The position numbers and the translations under genes were made by a program. Shown piece after piece: positions 1-64,000 of a DNA stretch of 64,000 nt; the stretch's first letter is position 1, and each line of letters starts with the position of its first letter. The stretch spans positions 81,238 to 145,237 of the forward strand of contig SOJX01000087.1 in assembly GCA_004376375.1 (NCBI GenBank), given 5' to 3'. The notes beneath the pieces are model-generated. The model saw only the letters and a program-made list of their open reading frames with translations. It made no database searches and had not been told where the DNA came from. Source of the DNA: Planctomycetota bacterium (GTDB lineage Bacteria > Planctomycetota > E44-bin39).

Positions 1-672
1 TTAGGGCTATTCCGGCCAGAATGCCGTGCGGTTTCGTTTCACGAGCTAACCGGAAGATCCATGATTATTGATCTAAGCCAGATTCCTAGCGACGAGATAA
101 AGAATGCACTGGCGCAATTGATCGTAATGTCAGCACATGCCTATTTTAATGCTCTTCCCCAGTCCGGCAGGATTCGCCAACTGTTTGTCATTGATGAGGC
201 ACACCGTGTGTTGGATTACGAATTCATGGCGGACTTCGTACTGCAATGCCGTGCCTATGGTGTTGGTATGATTCTGTCCTCTCAGTATCCAAGCCAATTC
301 CCGCAAGATGTATCGTCATCCATGGCAACCAAGATTCTCCACGGGAACGAGAGGGATAGCAACAGGGTGAAAGACATTGTCAAGCTGATACGTTGCGAGG
401 GGCGTGAAGGAGACGTGGCCAACCTTGATCGATTCCAGGCTTTTGTGGACAACCGTCATTATCCACACACGCTTCTACGCACCATGAACTACCCGCTGTA
501 CCTGGTATGGACCAGGCTCCGAGAGCTTGGGACTGCAACACGGGAAGAACTTTCGGAGGCAGAGGGATTCGATCCTTCCAAGCTGCAGATAGGGAACCTC
601 GTTCGACAATTGGAGCGCTTAGGACTTGCCGAGGAGCGGGAAGGCCGGGTGTTCTTGTTGGAATGCAAGTAA
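1..672 (+). CDS. P-loop NTPase, C-terminal part of a HerA/FtsK/TraG-like (DUF87-type) ATPase; 5' end lies outside the window
   Basis: Frame stays open from nt 1 with no stop before the first Met at 61. Walker-B-like 'LFVIDEAHRV' and a downstream 'RAYGVGMILSSQYPSQ' arginine-finger/sensor-like block typical of HerA/VirB4-type ATPases. C-terminal wHTH-like tail. Confidence 0.5.
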   Translation, partial: LGLFRPECRAVSFHELTGRSMIIDLSQIPSDEIKNALAQLIVMSAHAYFNALPQSGRIRQLFVIDEAHRVLDYEFMADFVLQCRAYGVGMILSSQYPSQFPQDVSSSMATKILHGNERDSNRVKDIVKLIRCEGREGDVANLDRFQAFVDNRHYPHTLLRTMNYPLYLVWTRLRELGTATREELSEAEGFDPSKLQIGNLVRQLERLGLAEEREGRVFLLECK

Positions 673-686
673 GCCGAGGTTAACAC

Positions 687-1541
687 ATGCATCCCTTCGT
701 CCAAGGAGAAAGTTACGACCGTGAGGAAGTACTCCGCTTCCTTGGAAGCAAGCAGAGACAAAGCGGGATCGTCTATGGACGCGACATCCATTCTTACATC
801 GCGATTTTCGCGGGGGGAAGGTCAGGCAAGACTGCCGGGTACGAGGATGGTTGGGGGTCCGATGGTACTTTCCGATACTGCGGGCAGGGTTCGCGTGGTA
901 ACCAGCGGTTAACAGGCCCCAATAAGGTGCTTGCAGAGCATCAAGGTATGATACTACTTTTTGAAACATAGAAGCCTAAACACTCCTGGAAGGGTAGGCA
1001 ACGCTTCCTTGGCGAGTACCACAGAATAGGTTATGAATGGGTAACGGGCAGAGGCTCTCGTCGGGGAGATCGTCTTCTGATGTTCTTGTTTATACCGGTT
1101 GAAAATATGGCAAGCAATAACCGGTTGCTTGTCAGCGCTGGGGAAGAAGTTGATATTGAAACACTCAAGGCCGAAGCAATAGCCGCAGGGCGACCTAGTT
1201 CCTCGACTTATAACACTAGAGCGGAATACCGATCAAGATCTGCATCTGTCGCACATTACGTATTGACGCGGGCAAAAGGAATATGCGAAGCATGTTTTCA
1301 ACCTGCCCCTTTCAATCGACCTGACCGGACCCCTTACCTTGAAGTCCATCATACTCAGCGGCTAGCAGACGAAGGGCCCGATGACATCATGCATGTAACG
1401 GGGATTTGTCCAAATTGCCACAGGGAAGCACACTTCGGTCCAGATACGGATGCGTTTCGGAAACGGTTGGAGAAATTCATTGCCGAGAAGGAAGGTGCTC
1501 TTGATCAAGAAACTCGAGCGGATGATCATCCGGCTTCCTAA
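687..1541 (+). pseudogene. SRA(YDG)-HNH modification-dependent (type IV-like) restriction endonuclease interrupted by one in-frame TAG at 969..971
   Basis: ORFs 687..971 and 1080..1541 are in the same frame, and the frame is open from 972 to 1079. The upstream part has SRA-like blocks ('GYEDGWGSDGTFRYCGQGSRGNQRLTGPNKVL' ... 'GRQRFLGEYHRIGY' ... 'GDRLLMFLFIPVE'), and the alignment continues across the stop. The downstream part has an HNH motif ('CEAC...EVHH...CPNCHREAH'). Confidence 0.55.
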
Positions 1542-2187
1542 ACCTCGGTTAATTCGGCAGTTCAGGGAGAAATTACTTTGTTGGTACGGCAAATACGGCC
1601 GGAAGTTCCCCTGGCGTAGGGCCTCGACCAGTAAGTATCAATACATCATTGCGGAAATACTGCTGCAGAGAACGCGGGCAGAAACTATCGCGGTCTTCTT
1701 CCCGAACTTTGTACGTGAATTTCCGTCGTGGAAGAATCTCGGCTCCGCAAGCGTCGCACGACTTCAACGCTATCTTCAACCAATAGGGCTTTGGCGTCGC
1801 AGGGCTGCATCGGTCAAGGCATTGGCGCGGGAGATGACCAAGAGAAACGGCATATTCCCCAAAAGGCGAGAAGATATCGAAGCGTTGCCTGGTATCGGGC
1901 AGTACATTGCGAACGCCGTGTTGCTCTTTTGCCACGGAACGCCGCAGCCCTTACTTGATGTTAACATGGCCCGTGTATTAGAAAGAGTCTTTGGGCCGAG
2001 AAAACTGGCCGATATACGATATGATCCTTATCTGCAGGAGCTTGCTAAAAAAGTGGTTCAACGCAAGACACCCGCAAAACTCAACTGGGCAATTCTCGAT
2101 CTTGCTAGCACAATTTGCCTGATAAGAAAGCCTCGCTGTAGTGATTGCCCGCTTGCATCAATATGCCTAGAAGCAGTTATCGCCTAA
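1522..2187 (+). CDS. HhH-GPD DNA glycosylase with 4Fe-4S loop; endonuclease III / MutY-catalytic-domain-only, Mig-like
   Basis: 'WYGKYGRKFPWR' MutY-like N-terminus. HhH-GPD block 'LPGIGQYIANAVLLFCHG...DVNMARVLERVFG'. Cys cluster 'CLIRKPRCSDCPLASIC' (Cx6Cx2Cx5C). About 222 aa with no NUDIX-like C-terminal domain. The ATG at 1522 overlaps the HNH ORF end by 20 nt. Confidence 0.7.
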   Translation: MIIRLPKPRLIRQFREKLLCWYGKYGRKFPWRRASTSKYQYIIAEILLQRTRAETIAVFFPNFVREFPSWKNLGSASVARLQRYLQPIGLWRRRAASVKALAREMTKRNGIFPKRREDIEALPGIGQYIANAVLLFCHGTPQPLLDVNMARVLERVFGPRKLADIRYDPYLQELAKKVVQRKTPAKLNWAILDLASTICLIRKPRCSDCPLASICLEAVIA

Positions 2188-2203: not shown

Positions 2204-3277
2204 ATGGAAACAATCTTTGGAGATGAATGTGGGTATACTGGCCAAGACCTTCTTCAGCCTGAACAACCTGTATTTGTTGAAGCAACCATAAAAATCTCTG
2301 AAGAGCAGAGCAAGGGATATCACGAAGAATTCTTTAGCAAGATTCAAGCAAAGGAATTAAAACACAAGAAGCTCTCAAAGAGGCCAAAACAGCAAGAGAT
2401 GGTTTTACGGTTTCTTGATTCCATCATTAAGGATTCCGTCCAGATCGATGTATTGATTATGCATAAACCATATGCTCTCCTTGGGAAGTTCGTTGATCTT
2501 GTTGTCGAACCAATAATGAAAATAACTGGCCATGACTTACTTTCAGAGGGAGAAAACCTCGCACTGACTAATTTGTTATGGATGGTTCTGCCCGTATTTA
2601 CCAGTGAGAATTTCTTCAATGAATTCCTGGTTAATTTTCAGAAATTGGTTCGAGAGCGTACTCCTGAGGCCTATGAAGATTTCTTCCGTCCTCTGTTATC
2701 AAGAAAATATCCACGACAACTGGATATTTTGATAACACCAGTTATGCTCTCAAATAGCCTGCTCAATACATCCATACTCTCTGATCTGGAGGATGGCCTA
2801 AAGGTAATGATAACCTGTTATTTCACACTTCTTGCGCGCTGGAACAATAAAGTTGATAAAGATATTACACTTGTGCTTGACCGCTCTTCTGAAGTTGCAC
2901 AGGATTATAAAACTTGGGAAGCATTAATGAATCCCTACAATAAACCCGTCTCTATAGGAACTGGGAATAGAAATACAACTTTCCCGATGAAAGTAAAAGA
3001 AACTTCTTTGGAGGACTCATGTGACTGGTGCGGATTACAGTTGGCTGACATCATTGCTGGTGCCACGACGAGATATGCTCACTGGATATTAAATGGACAA
3101 AATGCCGAAGATGAATATGCGGTTAAACTCGGCGAATTAATCATTAATAACATTATTGAACCAGCATGGAAGCTGTGGCCATCTGACAAAATGACCCCAG
3201 AAGAAATGGGTACTGAAAGGTATAATGGCAATGAGGCGATTGAGCAAATCGGGAAGATAATTGATGACAATGATTAG
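2204..3277 (+). CDS. DUF3800-family protein
   Basis: N-terminal 'IFGDECGYTG' (DUF3800 'DESG'-type start) and C-terminal 'LQLADIIAGA' motif. Confidence 0.6.
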   Translation: METIFGDECGYTGQDLLQPEQPVFVEATIKISEEQSKGYHEEFFSKIQAKELKHKKLSKRPKQQEMVLRFLDSIIKDSVQIDVLIMHKPYALLGKFVDLVVEPIMKITGHDLLSEGENLALTNLLWMVLPVFTSENFFNEFLVNFQKLVRERTPEAYEDFFRPLLSRKYPRQLDILITPVMLSNSLLNTSILSDLEDGLKVMITCYFTLLARWNNKVDKDITLVLDRSSEVAQDYKTWEALMNPYNKPVSIGTGNRNTTFPMKVKETSLEDSCDWCGLQLADIIAGATTRYAHWILNGQNAEDEYAVKLGELIINNIIEPAWKLWPSDKMTPEEMGTERYNGNEAIEQIGKIIDDND

Positions 3278-3408: not shown

Positions 3409-4284
3409 TCAATCAATTTTTCTCCCATCTGTTTCTAGAACGATTTTTTCAAAGCACGCCAGAACGTCAGGGAACTTATCTTTGAGGTATTTCTTGACCT
3501 TCTTGCTGGTAATCAATTTCCCAACGTAGCTGCATGTCTTTAATAGGTCAGTGGAATATCGGTGATACGTAGTAGTGTAGAAATCGTGGCTTTTTTGGGC
3601 TTCTTCCAACTTTGCAACCAGCTCTTTCCCTTTCGTGGGGTCCTGCGTCCAGGGTTTCCTTTTCTTTTTTTCGCCATTGCGCAGACTTTCAGGGGTTTTG
3701 ATTACCAGGGCCCGGGCAAACGACCGGCTGTAATCATTATTTTTCTGCATCTCTCTCAGTATTTGAAGTTGCCGCTTCGGCTTCACATAGGTGAACTCCG
3801 CTGCGCACTTCCGGCTCATAAAATTATCATCCAGTACTTTAATAACTTTCAGATGCAGTTGCTTAATCACAGTGGCCGCGAGCCGATATTTTATAGACCG
3901 CAAGCCAAAGGTCCCAGAAATGGCCGGTTCGGCAACGGTTTTGAGGGCTTTTTGCAGCATTCTATTCTCTTGTACAGCCGAAATCCTACTGACCTTTTTG
4001 TTCCAAGTGTATGTTTCCTTATTTTTCTTATTGCTGAAGACCCGACACGGAACTTTCCTGACGCCGAGTTTTTCAAAAGCCTTAAATCTGAGATAGCCGT
4101 CCAGGATGCTGTACTTCCCGTTTTTTTTATAAACGCAGACAGGTTCGACCAGGCCGACAGCCTTAATGGTGGCCACTATCCTGGCAAATCCCGCGTGAGA
4201 TTTCAGGTTAATGTCTCTTACGCGCAGGGGGACGAGATTCTCTATCGCAATATCTTTTCCCTGTACATTTACAACGTTTGCCAT
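3409..4284 (-). CDS. ParB/Sulfiredoxin-fold (ParB N-terminal nuclease-like) domain protein 1
   Basis: N-terminal 'PLRVRDINL...IKAVGLVEPVCVY...YSILDGYLRFKAFEKLG' matches the ParB-N pattern (G-x-R-R-x-A-like box). Lys-rich C-terminal half. Confidence 0.55.
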   Translation of the reverse strand: MANVVNVQGKDIAIENLVPLRVRDINLKSHAGFARIVATIKAVGLVEPVCVYKKNGKYSILDGYLRFKAFEKLGVRKVPCRVFSNKKNKETYTWNKKVSRISAVQENRMLQKALKTVAEPAISGTFGLRSIKYRLAATVIKQLHLKVIKVLDDNFMSRKCAAEFTYVKPKRQLQILREMQKNNDYSRSFARALVIKTPESLRNGEKKKRKPWTQDPTKGKELVAKLEEAQKSHDFYTTTYHRYSTDLLKTCSYVGKLITSKKVKKYLKDKFPDVLACFEKIVLETDGRKID

Positions 4285-4307
4285 GGGATTCCCTCCTTAG
4301 AAGCAGT

Positions 4308-4706
4308 CTACTTCGGCGACATCCTTCCCCGATTCCGAGTTTTGGGGCCCGCCGCTGGCTTTCGTTTCGCGTCGGCAGACTTGGATGACTTCTTTTTATT
4401 CCTCGGAAGAGTAATAAGTGATTGAAGAAACGAAAGGAACTCCATCTCTTCCCACATGACAAAGCTGGGCGCTTTTACTACTCCCAGATTCCGACATGCG
4501 TTTTCCCATGAAGGGCCGTCGATGATGAGATACCTTCCGTTACCACCGCTGATCATCATTTTCTCGATAAGCCCGATCCTTTTGATTGTCGACATCAGCT
4601 TGTTCAGACGTTCAAGGCCGGGAGAGCTTCCGTTCTTGGGCTTCTGAGACATCAGGAGATTATGCAACGCCAGAACTCTTTCCATGACGGGGTTCTTTTT
4701 AGACAT
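4308..4706 (-). CDS. ParB/Srx-fold domain protein 2 (small, basic C-terminus)
   Basis: 'IKRIGLIEKMMISGGNGRYLIIDGPSWENACRNLG' is ParB-N-like. Its stop overlaps the upstream gene (4699..4706). Confidence 0.45.
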   Translation of the reverse strand: MSKKNPVMERVLALHNLLMSQKPKNGSSPGLERLNKLMSTIKRIGLIEKMMISGGNGRYLIIDGPSWENACRNLGVVKAPSFVMWEEMEFLSFLQSLITLPRNKKKSSKSADAKRKPAAGPKTRNRGRMSPK

Positions 4707-5592
4707 GATACTCTCCTTTCAGTCGGGGGCGCTGGTCGAGCCCTTCGACTTTTAACAAGGCAACCAGTTTTTTGTCCTTCCAAATAGTATTGATTCCATC
4801 CAGGAGAGTGAGCAGGCGATTCACCTTTATGTTTGCCTCATGGTTGAATGACCTTTTCTCCTTGGTAATCTTGGAAATATCTGCCTTCAAGTTTTTGACC
4901 GAATAATTTTTCAGACGCGAGCGCCCTCTTCTATTTCCTGTCTGCTTTCCGCGTTTGATTCTGGTTTCTATAATCTTCCGGACCGAACTGGTATTATTGC
5001 TGCTGATAATGCCTGTATCGAAAGCGTCCATAAGAACATTCTGGATGGTGGAATTATCCGACCTTGCCACCAACATGGCAAAGGTTATGGGGAACAACCC
5101 CTGTTCCACTCCTTTTATCAACCTCGCTTCGCCCTGTTCCACCAGACGGATATAGTCCCGGATGTACGATTCGCATTTGCCGACGATTTTGCTAATCTCA
5201 GCGTATGACCAGCCTTCATCGTGTACCCGTTTGATTTCGTATGCAAACCACATCGTCCCGGGCGGTACGCGAGCGATGTTTTCAACCAGGGAATAAAGCA
5301 GCGCCTCCTTTTTACTACAGCTTCTGATCTCCGCAGGAATATGTGAGTACCCGAGCTCTTTGAAAGCGAGATAACGCCCCTGGCCACAGATCAATTCGTA
5401 ATGACCTGTTCTCTTGAAATTTCGCGTACTTACAAGGATGGGCTTTAGCAAGCCTACTTCCTTGATGCTCCGGATGATTTCCTGAAATTTAGTCTTGCCT
5501 CTGTTCCGAGGGTTCAACACCTTGATCTTGTCAACCGGTATATCCTCGTATTTGCGTTCTGTCATTGGCATTATCTTAATCGTTTTCATAGT
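4699..5592 (-). CDS. ParB-like nuclease domain protein 3
   Basis: 'IKEVGLLKPILVS...YELICGQGRYLAFKELG...LVENIAR' (ParB GERRxRA-like box and ENxxR box). Start chosen at 'MKTIKIMPMTERKYEDIPVDKIKV'. Follows the recombinase directly on the minus strand. Confidence 0.55.
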   Translation of the reverse strand, partial: TMKTIKIMPMTERKYEDIPVDKIKVLNPRNRGKTKFQEIIRSIKEVGLLKPILVSTRNFKRTGHYELICGQGRYLAFKELGYSHIPAEIRSCSKKEALLYSLVENIARVPPGTMWFAYEIKRVHDEGWSYAEISKIVGKCESYIRDYIRLVEQGEARLIKGVEQGLFPITFAMLVARSDNSTIQNVLMDAFDTGIISSNNTSSVRKIIETRIKRGKQTGNRRGRSRLKNYSVKNLKADISKITKEKRSFNHEANIKVNRLLTLLDGINTIWKDKKLVALLKVEGLDQRPRLKGEYHV

Positions 5593-5600
5593 ATGACCTC

Positions 5601-7091
5601 CTAGTCCAAAAGGGCCGCAATCATATCCAAGTTGCGGCACCCGTAGAGTTCGAGTCTGCTGTCACTCGAACTGAAGAGCTTGATGTTGCGGCTGTCTACG
5701 AGCATCCTGGGAAAAGTCAGATAACCTAGAATATCGTGTTTCCCGCTATTGGACAGGGGAACCCCAAGGGTGATATCCACTTCTTTTCTGGAATCCGGCA
5801 GGAACGACCAATAGGTGGTATATCCGTGAAAGACAGGCACCGACGGTTGAATGAGAAGGCTGAAACTGTCATTCAGGACAACGTAATCGTCAATCTCTTC
5901 AACTTGCCTGGCCAACGTTCTGAGCTGATCGACAACTGATTGCCTGGCCCGATCCCGAACATCTTTGTAGATATTCTGAAATGCCATGTCCAGTGACAGA
6001 AAATGCTTTGTGTAAGTTGCTGGAGACACCATCTTCTTGTCTGCAGCAACCTGACGTGGGCCGGCTTTGCCATATCGTTTATATAGTTTCGCAAGCCTCG
6101 CGAGCATGTCCTCGGCTGAATACCTGCGTTCGTGCTCTGCATTCATGGCTTCGATTCTTTCTTGAGCCTGAGTGAACAAAGCCTTATTGATGATCCCCTT
6201 GAATGCATTTTCTTGGCGAACCCACTCTTCTCTGGGGTTCTGCTTGGTGCCAGATTGCAGCTTTTGCCGTGTCTTATTGTAAACCATTGTTCCGATGTAG
6301 AATTCATTGGTCAAAATCGCCTGAATCGCACTGCTCGTCCACTTTTTACCACCGGGAGAAAGAATACTTCCGTCATTAAGAGAAGCCGCAATTTCTTTCG
6401 GGGCACAGCGTTTTTTAACAAAGGAGTTAAATATTTTCCTGACGACAGATGTTTCTTTTCTATCACCCGGAGCCAAAGTAACCCTTTGGTTTTGGATGCT
6501 TTTTCTTTGTCCCGGTTTCAGAATCTGAACGGGGTTGCGTTTTTCATCCAGGAGAAGCCTATGAAGACCATACGGTGGCGGAGCACCCGCCCGGAACCCC
6601 TGCTCGGCAATCTTCACACATCCCTTGAATACTTTGACGCTGAGTTCGCGGCTGTAATTGCCGGCCATAAATCGTTCAATATTCAGGTGCAGGAAACCTA
6701 AGAGGTCATCTTCTTCACGGAAGCCCATTGTCGTATAGACAACTTGTTTTCCGTAATTCAGACACATCGCCGCATAATACGCCGCAATGTCCGGATTCTG
6801 GAATCGCCCCCATCGGGTAGCATCAAGCACCAGGACATAATCGAAGTCCTCCTTGCCCTCAATCACATACTCGATCATTTCAAGGAAGGCATCTCTGCCC
6901 TTGGTTGACAGACCAGATTTTCCCGGCTCTTCAAATTCTTTGATAATCTCAATACGATTATCATCAGCGAACTTTCCTATCCGCTCCCGTTGAATAGGAA
7001 TGGAGTTTTCCTGCCGGTCTTGTGCAGAGTGGCGATAATAAGTTATCGCTTTTTTCCCACCCGGGGCTTTCTTTTGTTTTTTCCACCACAT
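5601..7091 (-). CDS. large serine recombinase (resolvase/invertase catalytic domain plus recombinase and zinc-ribbon region)
   Basis: N-terminal 'AITYYRHSAQDRQENSIPIQRERI...DYVLVLDATRWGR', resolvase-like with a Ser nucleophile context. About 500 aa with a long recombinase-domain tail. Start placed at 'MWWKKQKK'. Confidence 0.75.
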   Translation of the reverse strand: MWWKKQKKAPGGKKAITYYRHSAQDRQENSIPIQRERIGKFADDNRIEIIKEFEEPGKSGLSTKGRDAFLEMIEYVIEGKEDFDYVLVLDATRWGRFQNPDIAAYYAAMCLNYGKQVVYTTMGFREEDDLLGFLHLNIERFMAGNYSRELSVKVFKGCVKIAEQGFRAGAPPPYGLHRLLLDEKRNPVQILKPGQRKSIQNQRVTLAPGDRKETSVVRKIFNSFVKKRCAPKEIAASLNDGSILSPGGKKWTSSAIQAILTNEFYIGTMVYNKTRQKLQSGTKQNPREEWVRQENAFKGIINKALFTQAQERIEAMNAEHERRYSAEDMLARLAKLYKRYGKAGPRQVAADKKMVSPATYTKHFLSLDMAFQNIYKDVRDRARQSVVDQLRTLARQVEEIDDYVVLNDSFSLLIQPSVPVFHGYTTYWSFLPDSRKEVDITLGVPLSNSGKHDILGYLTFPRMLVDSRNIKLFSSSDSRLELYGCRNLDMIAALLD

Positions 7092-7345
7092 ATTATTACT
7101 TTCTGCGGAACTCGCGGATCGCGTTACTGAGAAGCACGGACGCATTGCCGAGCTCTTCCTTTGCAGCACGGCCAAGGAAAAAAGCCGATCCCCCCATTAA
7201 GAAAGGGGAATTATAGGCACTTTTAATGAATTTTTTTCAAAATATTTTTCAGCCTATATCTAGTGGCTTACGCTATCCAAGGCTACAACATGTAGAATTT
7301 TGCCGCTGGTGTGGGTTATGAATATTAATTAATGAGTCACGATTT

Positions 7346-7852
7346 TCAACTGGCCGAGCTAATCTTATGAGAAATCCTACTGGCAAACTCCTGTAAGAGA
7401 TTAGTTGCCTTTCTACGTGTAATTGCCTGATCGAGCAACGTGCCAACAACCCGAATCAGTTCTGCTTCATCGGAAGGCTCCTGCGATTGCTGGGATAGAA
7501 TGAGCAATTTTTTCCTGATTTTCTTTAACGCGCCGCCTACTTTTTTTCCTCGCCTTTTTTTGCCGATTAAATGTTGATTGACCGCTGGTTGGGAAATGTT
7601 CAATTTCTCAGCGATTTCGGACTGGGTGTGGCCGCGGAAACGAAGGATGAGGGCCTGTTGCTGCTTGTATGTCAAATCATTGAGAATGATCCTGTTTAAT
7701 AACGGTATAAACAGCGATAAGATTTCATTTTTTTTCAGCCGGTCTTTTCTTTCGTGATTATAACTGTACCACCGACCGGAGGTCTCGGGTATATTTTGCC
7801 AATGTCTTACATCAAGGTGAGCATTTCCAAAAAAATTCTCCCCGTTTTTCAT
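7346..7852 (-). CDS. small sigma-70 region-4-like / HTH DNA-binding regulator
   Basis: 'LTYKQQQALILRFRGHTQSEIAEKLNISQPAVNQHL' HTH followed by a basic tail. Confidence 0.45.
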   Translation of the reverse strand: MKNGENFFGNAHLDVRHWQNIPETSGRWYSYNHERKDRLKKNEILSLFIPLLNRIILNDLTYKQQQALILRFRGHTQSEIAEKLNISQPAVNQHLIGKKRRGKKVGGALKKIRKKLLILSQQSQEPSDEAELIRVVGTLLDQAITRRKATNLLQEFASRISHKISSAS

Positions 7853-63650: not shown

Positions 63651-64000
63651 GCGCCGTTTGCTGCATTAGAAGCTGTAGAGGCGGGTCTCAGACCCGCCCA
63701 TATCGCGCGAAGCTCATTATAACCGACCAACCGAATAACCGGGCAACCGAACAACCATTCAACCGCTTGCACAATCCGCGTTTGGGTGTAGAATATAGAA
63801 GAAGTCCTGAGTCCCGAGTCCTGAGTCCTGAGTCAGAAGAAAAGAAATAATAATGCGCGGCGGAGCCGCACAAAACGGAACCGCGAAGCGGTGAAATATA
63901 GTAGCCCAGGGCGTGAGCCCTGGGTATGAGTACCCAATAATTTCAGAGAGCCCTGAAAGGGCGAAACAATCTGGAGAACAGGATGATTTTTGTACCGCCC

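Follow-up and report, generated by a model that had tools for sequence, protein, structure and literature searches.

What is a small MutY-like DNA glycosylase, 221 amino acids (aa) long, doing beside a McrA-like nuclease gene in the genome of a Planctomycetota bacterium? The window considered here is the whole stretch of 64,000 nucleotides (nt) analysed from contig SOJX01000087.1 (assembly GCA_004376375.1, positions 81,238 to 145,237 of the forward strand), and the gene in question lies at 1522..2187 on its plus strand. Our analysis suggests that the product is probably a monofunctional, iron-sulfur (FeS) HhH-GPD enzyme of the Mig.MthI type, acting on T:G and U:G mismatches as the repair ("V") part of a defence cassette with a C5 cytosine methyltransferase (MTase). 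The conserved partner of the glycosylase is the C5 MTase of mobile defence cassettes, not the adjacent SRA-HNH nuclease.

The open reading frame (ORF) is real. Counted from stop to stop and ending at 2187, it offers three possible starts (ATG 1450, TTG 1501 and ATG 1522); a 100% identical database protein, P0001, has its start called at TTG 1501, which gives 228 aa; the sequence GGAAGG precedes that codon at a distance of 5 nt. Since homology begins at about residue 4-14 of the form starting at 1522, the choice between 1501 and 1522 is immaterial to the analysis. The gene and its landmarks are as follows:

1522..2187, plus strand: Mig-like HhH-GPD/[4Fe-4S] DNA glycosylase, 221 aa (Pfam, NCBIfam, PADLOC and PDB matches, alignment, model)
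1654-1656, plus strand: codon of E45
about 1846-1929, plus strand: HhH motif
1903-1905, plus strand: codon of Y128
1957-1959, plus strand: codon of D146
1963-1965, plus strand: codon of N148
2086-2088, plus strand: codon of W189
2116-2166, plus strand: Cys loop, C199..C215

Pfam recognises the HhH-GPD domain (PF00730, 3.7e-14) and the HHH motif (PF00633, 1.4e-7), with EndIII_4Fe-2S (PF10576) scoring 18.6 bits, slightly under its 20.5-bit cut-off. The Cys loop C199-x6-C206-x2-C209-x5-C215 can be read directly from the sequence and its four Cys are invariant in the family alignment; the window ORF retains all residues invariant in the family. The N-terminus, LLCWYGKYGRKFPWR, aligns with VLDWYDKYGRKTLPWQ of E. 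coli MutY. The protein ends 6 residues past the last Cys, at residue 221, and therefore has no NUDIX domain, unlike the true MutY relatives P0206 and P0248, in which NUDIX_4 was found. The AlphaFold model, for which 17 family members were used (mean predicted local distance difference test score, pLDDT, 88), superposes with a template modelling (TM) score of ~0.81 on both the MutY core 1kg4 and Mig 1kea, and of ~0.77 on EndoIII; residues 200-205 are of low confidence, as expected when the cluster is not modelled.

Placement within the superfamily was judged from curated models, a tree and pocket residues. The glycosylase scores 158.1 bits against mutY TIGR01084 (cut-off 286.5) and 68.4 bits against nth TIGR01083 (cut-off 211.7; both NCBIfam). 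Because it falls far below both curated cut-offs, it is a member of the MutY/Mig side of the superfamily and not an orthologue of housekeeping MutY or Nth. Its sole PADLOC match covers the full length of PDLC03398, "type II nicking endonuclease" (3.2e-28). Because this model and the PDB match to Mig.MthI 1kea agree in length (221) and match coordinates, we infer that the model was built on Mig. In a neighbour-joining tree of 143 sequences, which carries no support values and was used only for the placement of MutY and Mig, E. coli MutY clusters with NUDIX-bearing relatives and Mig lies amid short proteins.

Pocket residues were mapped by aligning Mig.MthI, MutY and Nth with 139 glycosylase relatives; the reference sequences of Mig.MthI, E. 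coli Nth and E. coli Vsr were verified as identical to PDB or RefSeq. The correspondences are:

window F29: Mig.MthI F27, E. coli MutY L22, E. coli Nth H19
window E45: Mig.MthI E42, E. coli MutY E37, E. coli Nth V36
window R50: Mig.MthI R47, E. coli MutY Q42, E. coli Nth Q41
window A53: Mig.MthI A50, E. coli MutY V45, E. coli Nth D44
window Y128: Mig.MthI Y126, E. coli MutY S120, E. coli Nth K120
window D146: Mig.MthI D144, E. coli MutY D138, E. coli Nth D138
window N148: Mig.MthI N146, E. coli MutY N140, E. coli Nth H140
window W189: Mig.MthI L187, E. coli MutY Q182, E. coli Nth W178

The catalytic E, D and N of the window protein recur in Mig as well as in MutY. Of the five positions that discriminate between these two, four carry the Mig residue in the window protein (F29, R50, A53 and Y128), and both Y128 and D146 are found in 139/139 representatives. 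In MutY, adenine is specified by V45 and Q182, and the double change A50V/L187Q moves the preference of Mig from T/G to A/G (PMC2714593). Thymine is recognised by Tyr126 of Mig, the position occupied in Nth by the nucleophile Lys120, and Y126K makes Mig an apurinic/apyrimidinic (AP) lyase (PMC9945173). With E45 and D146 present and Tyr instead of Lys at the Nth K120 position, the window enzyme is predicted to be monofunctional. By its single domain of ~220 aa together with F29, R50, A53 and Y128, it classes at the sequence level as Mig.MthI-type. The preliminary description, made from the DNA letters, had proposed a Mig-like glycosylase of the MutY/EndoIII family, reduced to its catalytic domain, with a MutY-type N-terminus, an HhH-GPD motif and a Cx6Cx2Cx5C loop and no NUDIX domain; Pfam, the alignment, the fold, the pocket residues and PDLC03398 all agree with it. 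Two of the checks suggested there turned out in the same sense, with a Tyr facing the Nth lysine next to a retained Asp, and a placement outside the housekeeping MutY and Nth groups by both equivalog scores and tree.

The window protein belongs to a large clade. A word-indexed protein search yielded 2,839 clusters (90% identity), and its 120 best matches are 61-100% identical to the window protein and nearly all 220-280 aa long; an exhaustive search of 50% representatives gave 495 with E < 1e-30, again nearly all short. The NUDIX_4-bearing MutYs P0206 and P0248 are at just 29-36% identity. Among species-representative genomes, the bacterial hosts are Omnitrophota, Thermodesulfobacteriota, Gammaproteobacteria, Alphaproteobacteria, Nitrospirota, Acidobacteriota, Chloroflexota, Planctomycetota, Bacteroidota and Gemmatimonadota, joined by one archaeal host, Methanolinea. 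Cultured carriers include Tunturiibacter lichenicola MP8S11, Maribellus luteus XSD2 and Mucilaginibacter sp. E4BP6. Relatives in these genomes are 49-72% identical to the window glycosylase, and the spread of the clade over so many phyla at this identity therefore points to horizontal transfer. A phage origin was considered and rejected, as the search of viral contigs found no relative. The relatives are labelled "hypothetical protein" in RefSeq or, for several in JGI, "A/G-specific adenine glycosylase", and both labels likely miss a Mig-type function; for annotation, a clade of ~2,800 clusters (90% identity) is suggested to be a Mig-type mismatch glycosylase. Two plasmid homologues, NZ_CP123587.1 55072-55596 and NZ_AP024928.1 6086-6793, bear the RefSeq label "hypothetical protein".

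Which genes travel with this clade was asked by calling and clustering ORFs in 81 non-redundant glycosylase loci, with SspF-like F and GHKL ATPases kept as separate families. Only one gene family accompanies the glycosylase, the C5 cytosine methyltransferase (motifs GGPPCQGFS, ENV, TVREYARLQSFPDW and GNAVPP; PF00145 at 4e-48 to 7e-53). It lies within 10 kb in 62/81 loci, and in 30/30 of those with >=9.9 kb on both flanks; most of the 19 loci lacking it are shortened on one flank. Three more distant relatives are fused to the MTase, in the order glycosylase-MTase in P0192 (677 aa) and P0222 (652 aa) and MTase-glycosylase in P0252 (620 aa). Two plasmids annotated in RefSeq present the same association: on Thermus thermophilus pAA1-1c the homologue directly follows a "DNA cytosine methyltransferase" with a 29-nt overlap, and on an Alisedimentitalea plasmid it comes after a methyltransferase and an "MvaI/BcnI family restriction endonuclease". 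The remaining genes vary and, beside MTase and glycosylase, form these modules:

29 loci: F-G-H module
18 loci: GHKL (paraMORC-like) ATPase with a 300-aa protein
13 loci: GHKL ATPase with an Mrr_cat-ResIII helicase and frequently an MzaA-like sigma protein
17 loci: MvaI/BcnI-type restriction enzyme, in five with DzbA and DzbB
7 loci: small groups c13 (4) and c15+c16 (3)

The modules overlap (for instance, four loci have both the Mrr-helicase and the MvaI/BcnI enzyme), so the counts sum to more than 81; another 3/81 loci have none of them or are cut. With partners as different as F-G-H, GHKL plus the 300-aa protein, GHKL plus Mrr-helicase, MvaI/BcnI and Dazbog, the glycosylase appears independent of the restriction module. 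Its own pairwise identity is high (mean 57%, minimum 43%), and it is better conserved than the MTases, which fall into three architecture groups (~420, 536 and 740 aa) that are mutually alignable over just 22-76% of their length. A conserved glycosylase accompanying MTases of differing recognition regions therefore fits a mismatch-specific rather than a sequence-specific enzyme. Alignment of the MTase with E. coli Dcm is confined to the catalytic motifs (21-31% identity) and leaves out the target-recognition region; the MvaI/BcnI partner hints at CCNGG-type MTase sites, for those loci only.

The closest relatives of the window glycosylase, P0005, P0006 and P0012 (73-75% identity), are all in MTase-F-G-H-glycosylase order, that is, the MTase (PF00145), a 678-aa gene, a ~515-aa gene, a ~1,850-aa gene and the glycosylase. 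F matches SspF weakly (4.6e-10 to 7.5e-7) and G has no match. H spans 1,700-1,950 aa, of which only the C-terminal ATPase matches DndH (1e-31 to 7e-33). The five-gene cassette of MTase, SspF-like F, G, DndH-like H and glycosylase occurs in L008, L010-L013, L016, L090-L093 and other loci. It has the look of a DndFGH/SspFGH relative marked by methylation; its gene sizes and order resemble those of DndFGH, a likeness that does not prove homology.

Other known defence genes appear in some of these loci. In the Bacteroidota loci L049, L064, L070, L078 and L085, the Dazbog genes DzbA and DzbB (PADLOC 1e-100 and 5.5e-48) sit between a 740-aa C5 MTase, which has an N-terminal Arm-DNA-bind_5 domain, and the MvaI/BcnI-type enzyme with the glycosylase. 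In L018, L030, L036 and L060, an MzaA-like sigma-70-domain protein (PADLOC 4e-42) is encoded after GHKL ATPase and Mrr_cat-ResIII helicase, sharing the cassette with MTase and glycosylase.

A further link to cytosine methylation comes from remnants of vsr, sought by tblastn with E. coli Vsr. Some Bacteroidota loci bear a truncated vsr upstream of the glycosylase: N-terminal stubs of 37-49 codons stand directly upstream in L049:90, L061:8527 and L075:9739, reading MADVHDK.TRS.NMS.I..K.TKPE and then stop, and a similar stub is found ~2 kb upstream in L044:8043. L058:8075 has a complete vsr gene. Operons of MORC/paraMORC, superfamily 2 (SF2) helicase and DCM were described with Vsr, the glycosylase being unmentioned (Iyer et al., PMC2292703); the paraMORC/helicase/DCM operon types seen here carry an HhH-GPD protein in place of Vsr. 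Given the stubs at the glycosylase slot and these operons described with Vsr, there appears to have been a non-orthologous displacement in situ of Vsr by the Mig-like glycosylase. Base excision of the Mig kind and nicking by Vsr appear to be interchangeable responses to the mutational cost of 5-methylcytosine (5mC), and the stubs would then capture the swap in progress. The preliminary description had tied the glycosylase to 5mC and asked for the neighbourhoods of close homologs; these consist of restriction or defence genes, so the refutation envisaged there (a firm housekeeping placement with unrelated neighbourhoods) did not come about, and the tie is strengthened by the linkage in every fully sampled locus, the fusions and the vsr stubs.

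How such an enzyme might work can be sketched. The 5-methylcytosine made by the cassette MTase would deaminate to T, and a C attacked by the MTase could become U. The T or U of the T:G/U:G mispair would be flipped into the pocket formed by F29, R50, A53, Y128 and W189, and the N-glycosidic bond would be cut using D146 and E45. A lyase step would be absent because the Nth-Lys120 position is Tyr, leaving the host AP endonuclease, polymerase and ligase to restore C:G. In this manner the job of Vsr would be done through base excision rather than nicking, and the host would be spared the C-to-T cost of the MTase.

The preliminary description had coupled the glycosylase to a modified-cytosine-dependent nuclease, encoded immediately upstream:

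687..1541, plus strand: McrA-like (SRA-like N-terminal + HNH) type IV nuclease gene with an in-frame TAG at 969-971, a probable pseudogene

This coupling holds only in part: adjacency and the McrA-like HNH domain stand. The stop codon of the neighbour (1539-1541) overlaps the glycosylase start (1522) by 20 nt, and its HNH domain is supported by PF01844 (Pfam), by a match to E. coli McrA 6ghc (4.5e-18) and by PADLOC mREase_IV (4.1e-16). The N-terminal half matches the ScoMcrA SRA region weakly (domain E 0.007), and Pfam calls no SRA domain either in the neighbour or in its intact homologues. The ORF is one reading frame broken by the TAG at 969-971. Two intact homologues, L014:925-1752 (60% identity; order H-HNH-glycosylase) and L028:7669-8589 (56%; order F-G-H-HNH-glycosylase), both have Trp at that position, so the lesion is TGG>TAG and the window gene is probably dead. 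An SRA-HNH gene stands beside the glycosylase in 2/81 loci and the window; F-G-H cassettes carry it only occasionally, as an accessory, and its proposed role as functional partner of the glycosylase finds no backing. In the relatives, a McrA-like, 5mC-directed nuclease sits within an operon that opens with a C5 MTase, a potentially self-conflicting pair, and this conflict may explain the loss of the gene.

Several observations weigh against a Mig-type repair enzyme serving the MTase. In the PDB sequence search the raw score to the MutY core (115 bits) is slightly above that to Mig (97 bits), and the tree is star-like. The fifth discriminating position carries Trp189 and not the Leu of Mig, hence the pocket is not identical to that of Mig; this hydrophobic residue is not the Gln of MutY either, and the position holds 101 W, 12 L, 7 F and 6 Y among representatives. 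In F-G-H cassettes the glycosylase stands at the operon end, far from the MTase, which would also fit a role in a restriction complex, and MTase fusions are equally typical of restriction enzymes. Finally, the C5 MTase, F and G were not found within the 64-kb window; since the window opens inside H, the MTase is predicted ~9 kb upstream of it, with F and G likewise upstream.

Some of these points suit a restriction or defence effector, which would strip foreign DNA of bases, acting on unmethylated target sites in the manner of R.PabI or on modified phage bases in that of Brig1, with the C5 MTase protecting self DNA or the F-G-H complex exploiting AP sites or nicks. The gene is invariably part of a defence or restriction-modification operon and co-oriented with restriction genes, it is unusually well conserved and its MTase fusions recall type IIG enzymes; R.PabI and Brig1 are likewise glycosylases from restriction-modification or defence loci. 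We nevertheless consider an effector unlikely. Most loci already have a restriction component (MvaI/BcnI, Mrr-helicase or a DndH-like module), the 221-aa protein is a catalytic core alone with no extra DNA-recognition domain, and its identity of at least 43% (mean 57%) despite changing MTase architectures would be unexpected for a sequence-specific restriction enzyme. The pocket residues are those of a Mig-type mismatch enzyme, vsr remnants occupy the glycosylase position and viral contigs yielded no relative. R.PabI and Brig1 have folds different from that of the window glycosylase, and evidence for foreign DNA as a target was not found here. The preliminary description had offered a defensive glycosylase acting on modified phage bases as one of two roles, and nothing in the data speaks in its favour. 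A related and similarly improbable reading takes the five-gene cassette as an undescribed defence system marked by 5-methylcytosine, not phosphorothioate, in which the glycosylase is an integral working part. If so, its AP sites or nicks could load or license the H translocase-nuclease, or it could cooperate with the MutL-like GHKL ATPases found in sister cassettes, much as Vsr does with MutL.

A housekeeping enzyme against oxidative damage, either a truncated MutY (A opposite 8-oxoguanine, 8-oxoG, or G) or an Nth-like protein placed by chance on the island, draws on the top PDB and NCBIfam raw scores, which are those of MutY, and on the JGI label "A/G-specific adenine glycosylase" of several relatives. 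It is very unlikely considering the scores below both equivalog cut-offs, the missing NUDIX domain that reads 8-oxoG, the replacement of V45, S120 and Q182 of MutY and of K120 of Nth, the C5 MTase linkage in 30/30 fully sampled loci, and a spread over more than a dozen phyla and one archaeon that at 49-72% identity indicates horizontal transfer. Excision of 5-methylcytosine itself would be reminiscent of DEMETER and ROS1, which are also HhH-GPD/FeS enzymes (PMC3045615), and might either erase the marks of the partner MTase, as a means of regulation or phase variation, or turn on foreign 5mC DNA together with the SRA-HNH protein, the window neighbour being a McrA-like 5mC-dependent nuclease. 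Removing the mark of the cognate MTase would, however, leave AP sites across the whole genome, the SRA-HNH neighbour is rare, and broken in the window, and the residue pattern resembles that of Mig, a mismatch enzyme; we regard such activity as highly improbable. It is also quite unlikely that the cassette is decaying in the window and the glycosylase an intact remnant no longer needed. The nonsense codon in the adjoining SRA-HNH gene, the decay of H in the related loci L015 and L007 and the MTase unseen in the window would suit decay, but the glycosylase ORF retains all invariant family residues and the 223 codons of H in view form an open frame with 60% identity to intact relatives.

How far the proposed mismatch-repair partner of a C5 MTase departs from known systems can be seen by comparison. 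Mig.MthI is the T/G and U/G mismatch glycosylase of the Methanothermobacter plasmid pFV1 (PDB 1KEA), and a glycosylase guarding a C5 MTase is a principle known since then. The window protein shares with it the single domain of ~220 aa, the HhH-GPD fold (model TM 0.81), the Cx6Cx2Cx5C loop, the catalytic Glu, Asp and Asn and the equivalents of F27, R47, A50 and Y126. Genes of the window clade lie, in the relatives, beside that of a C5 MTase, as the gene of Mig.MthI does on pFV1, where the C5 MTase is M.MthTI. Unlike Mig.MthI, to which it has only ~28-30% identity and from which it differs in Trp189 for Leu187, the clade is mostly bacterial, horizontally mobile and found in varied environmental metagenome-assembled genomes, and its partners are multi-gene modules (DndFGH/SspFGH-like, paraMORC, Dazbog, MvaI/BcnI) and not simple type II systems.

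The MutY catalytic domain (1KG2/1KG4 from E. coli and 1RRQ from G. stearothermophilus) is the best raw match at 115 bits, ~32% identity and TM ~0.81, sharing the N-terminal WY..GR..PWR motif and the equivalents of E37, D138 and N140. Unlike MutY, the window protein has no NUDIX-like domain reading 8-oxoG, carries A, W and Y for V45, Q182 and S120, and stands in a restriction-modification/defence rather than a housekeeping context. With Nth it shares the superfamily, the FeS loop, Asp138 and a Trp at the W189 equivalent, whereas its Tyr for Lys120 means that lyase activity is not expected.

Vsr is the partner of Dcm, nicks 5' of the T and is specific for sequence context. The window protein would resemble it in its presumed job and does so in its slot beside C5 MTases, including paraMORC/helicase operons (PMC2292703), and it would be a functional analogue only, having an HhH-GPD fold where Vsr has the restriction-endonuclease fold (PF03852); it would remove the base and appears generic across MTase types. 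In the literature searched on paraMORC operons, DndFGH and archaeal restriction-modification, Vsr is mentioned and an HhH glycosylase was not found in these contexts. Nor did we find described there the size and phyletic spread of the bacterial clade, a systematic substitution for Vsr, or a glycosylase as the fifth gene of an MTase plus distant DndFGH/SspFGH-like cassette. The MTase-glycosylase pair could serve as a marker for finding C5-methylation-based defence cassettes, and the clade as a possible source of tools in the form of mesophilic T:G/U:G glycosylases.

The other features of the window near the glycosylase are:

1..672, plus strand: C-terminal 223 codons of the DndH-like HerA/FtsK-type ATPase "H" (~1850 aa in relatives), truncated where the window opens
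2204..3277, plus strand: DUF3800 protein (PF12686, 2.5e-5), 16 nt past the glycosylase stop
3409-4284 and 4699-5640, minus strand: ParB_N/RepB-like genes (Pfam)
4308-4706, minus strand: short ORF between the ParB-like genes, with no Pfam match
5601-7175, minus strand: large serine recombinase, 524 aa (Pfam)
7346-7852, minus strand: sigma-70 region-4 helix-turn-helix protein (Pfam)

The H fragment matches HerA, DndH and mad8 in PADLOC and shows 60% identity with the C-terminal part of the 1848-aa H ORF of L008 (called gene 1830 aa), which lies directly upstream of the glycosylase homologue of that locus. The glycosylase is the last conserved gene of the operon in the window. The DUF3800 gene, for which the 81 related loci gave no homologue, is not a conserved partner and is probably a separate insertion; GC content is 50-54% over H and glycosylase and ~40% in the DUF3800 gene and the flanking genome. 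The minus-strand genes at 3409..7852 are likely the integration and maintenance module of a cassette-bearing island, and host genes (an ABC transporter ATPase) resume at ~8.6 kb. Similarly, the P0012 locus has DUF2924 and a large serine recombinase directly after the glycosylase. The serine recombinase and ParB-like genes, the GC shift and this parallel indicate that an integrative element carries the cassette as cargo. Near the other end of the window, an Acidobacteriota- or Lentisphaerota-like host is hinted at by 63879..63924 on the minus strand, a full-length match to the Acido-Lenti-1 small RNA (Rfam RF01687, 59.5 bits).

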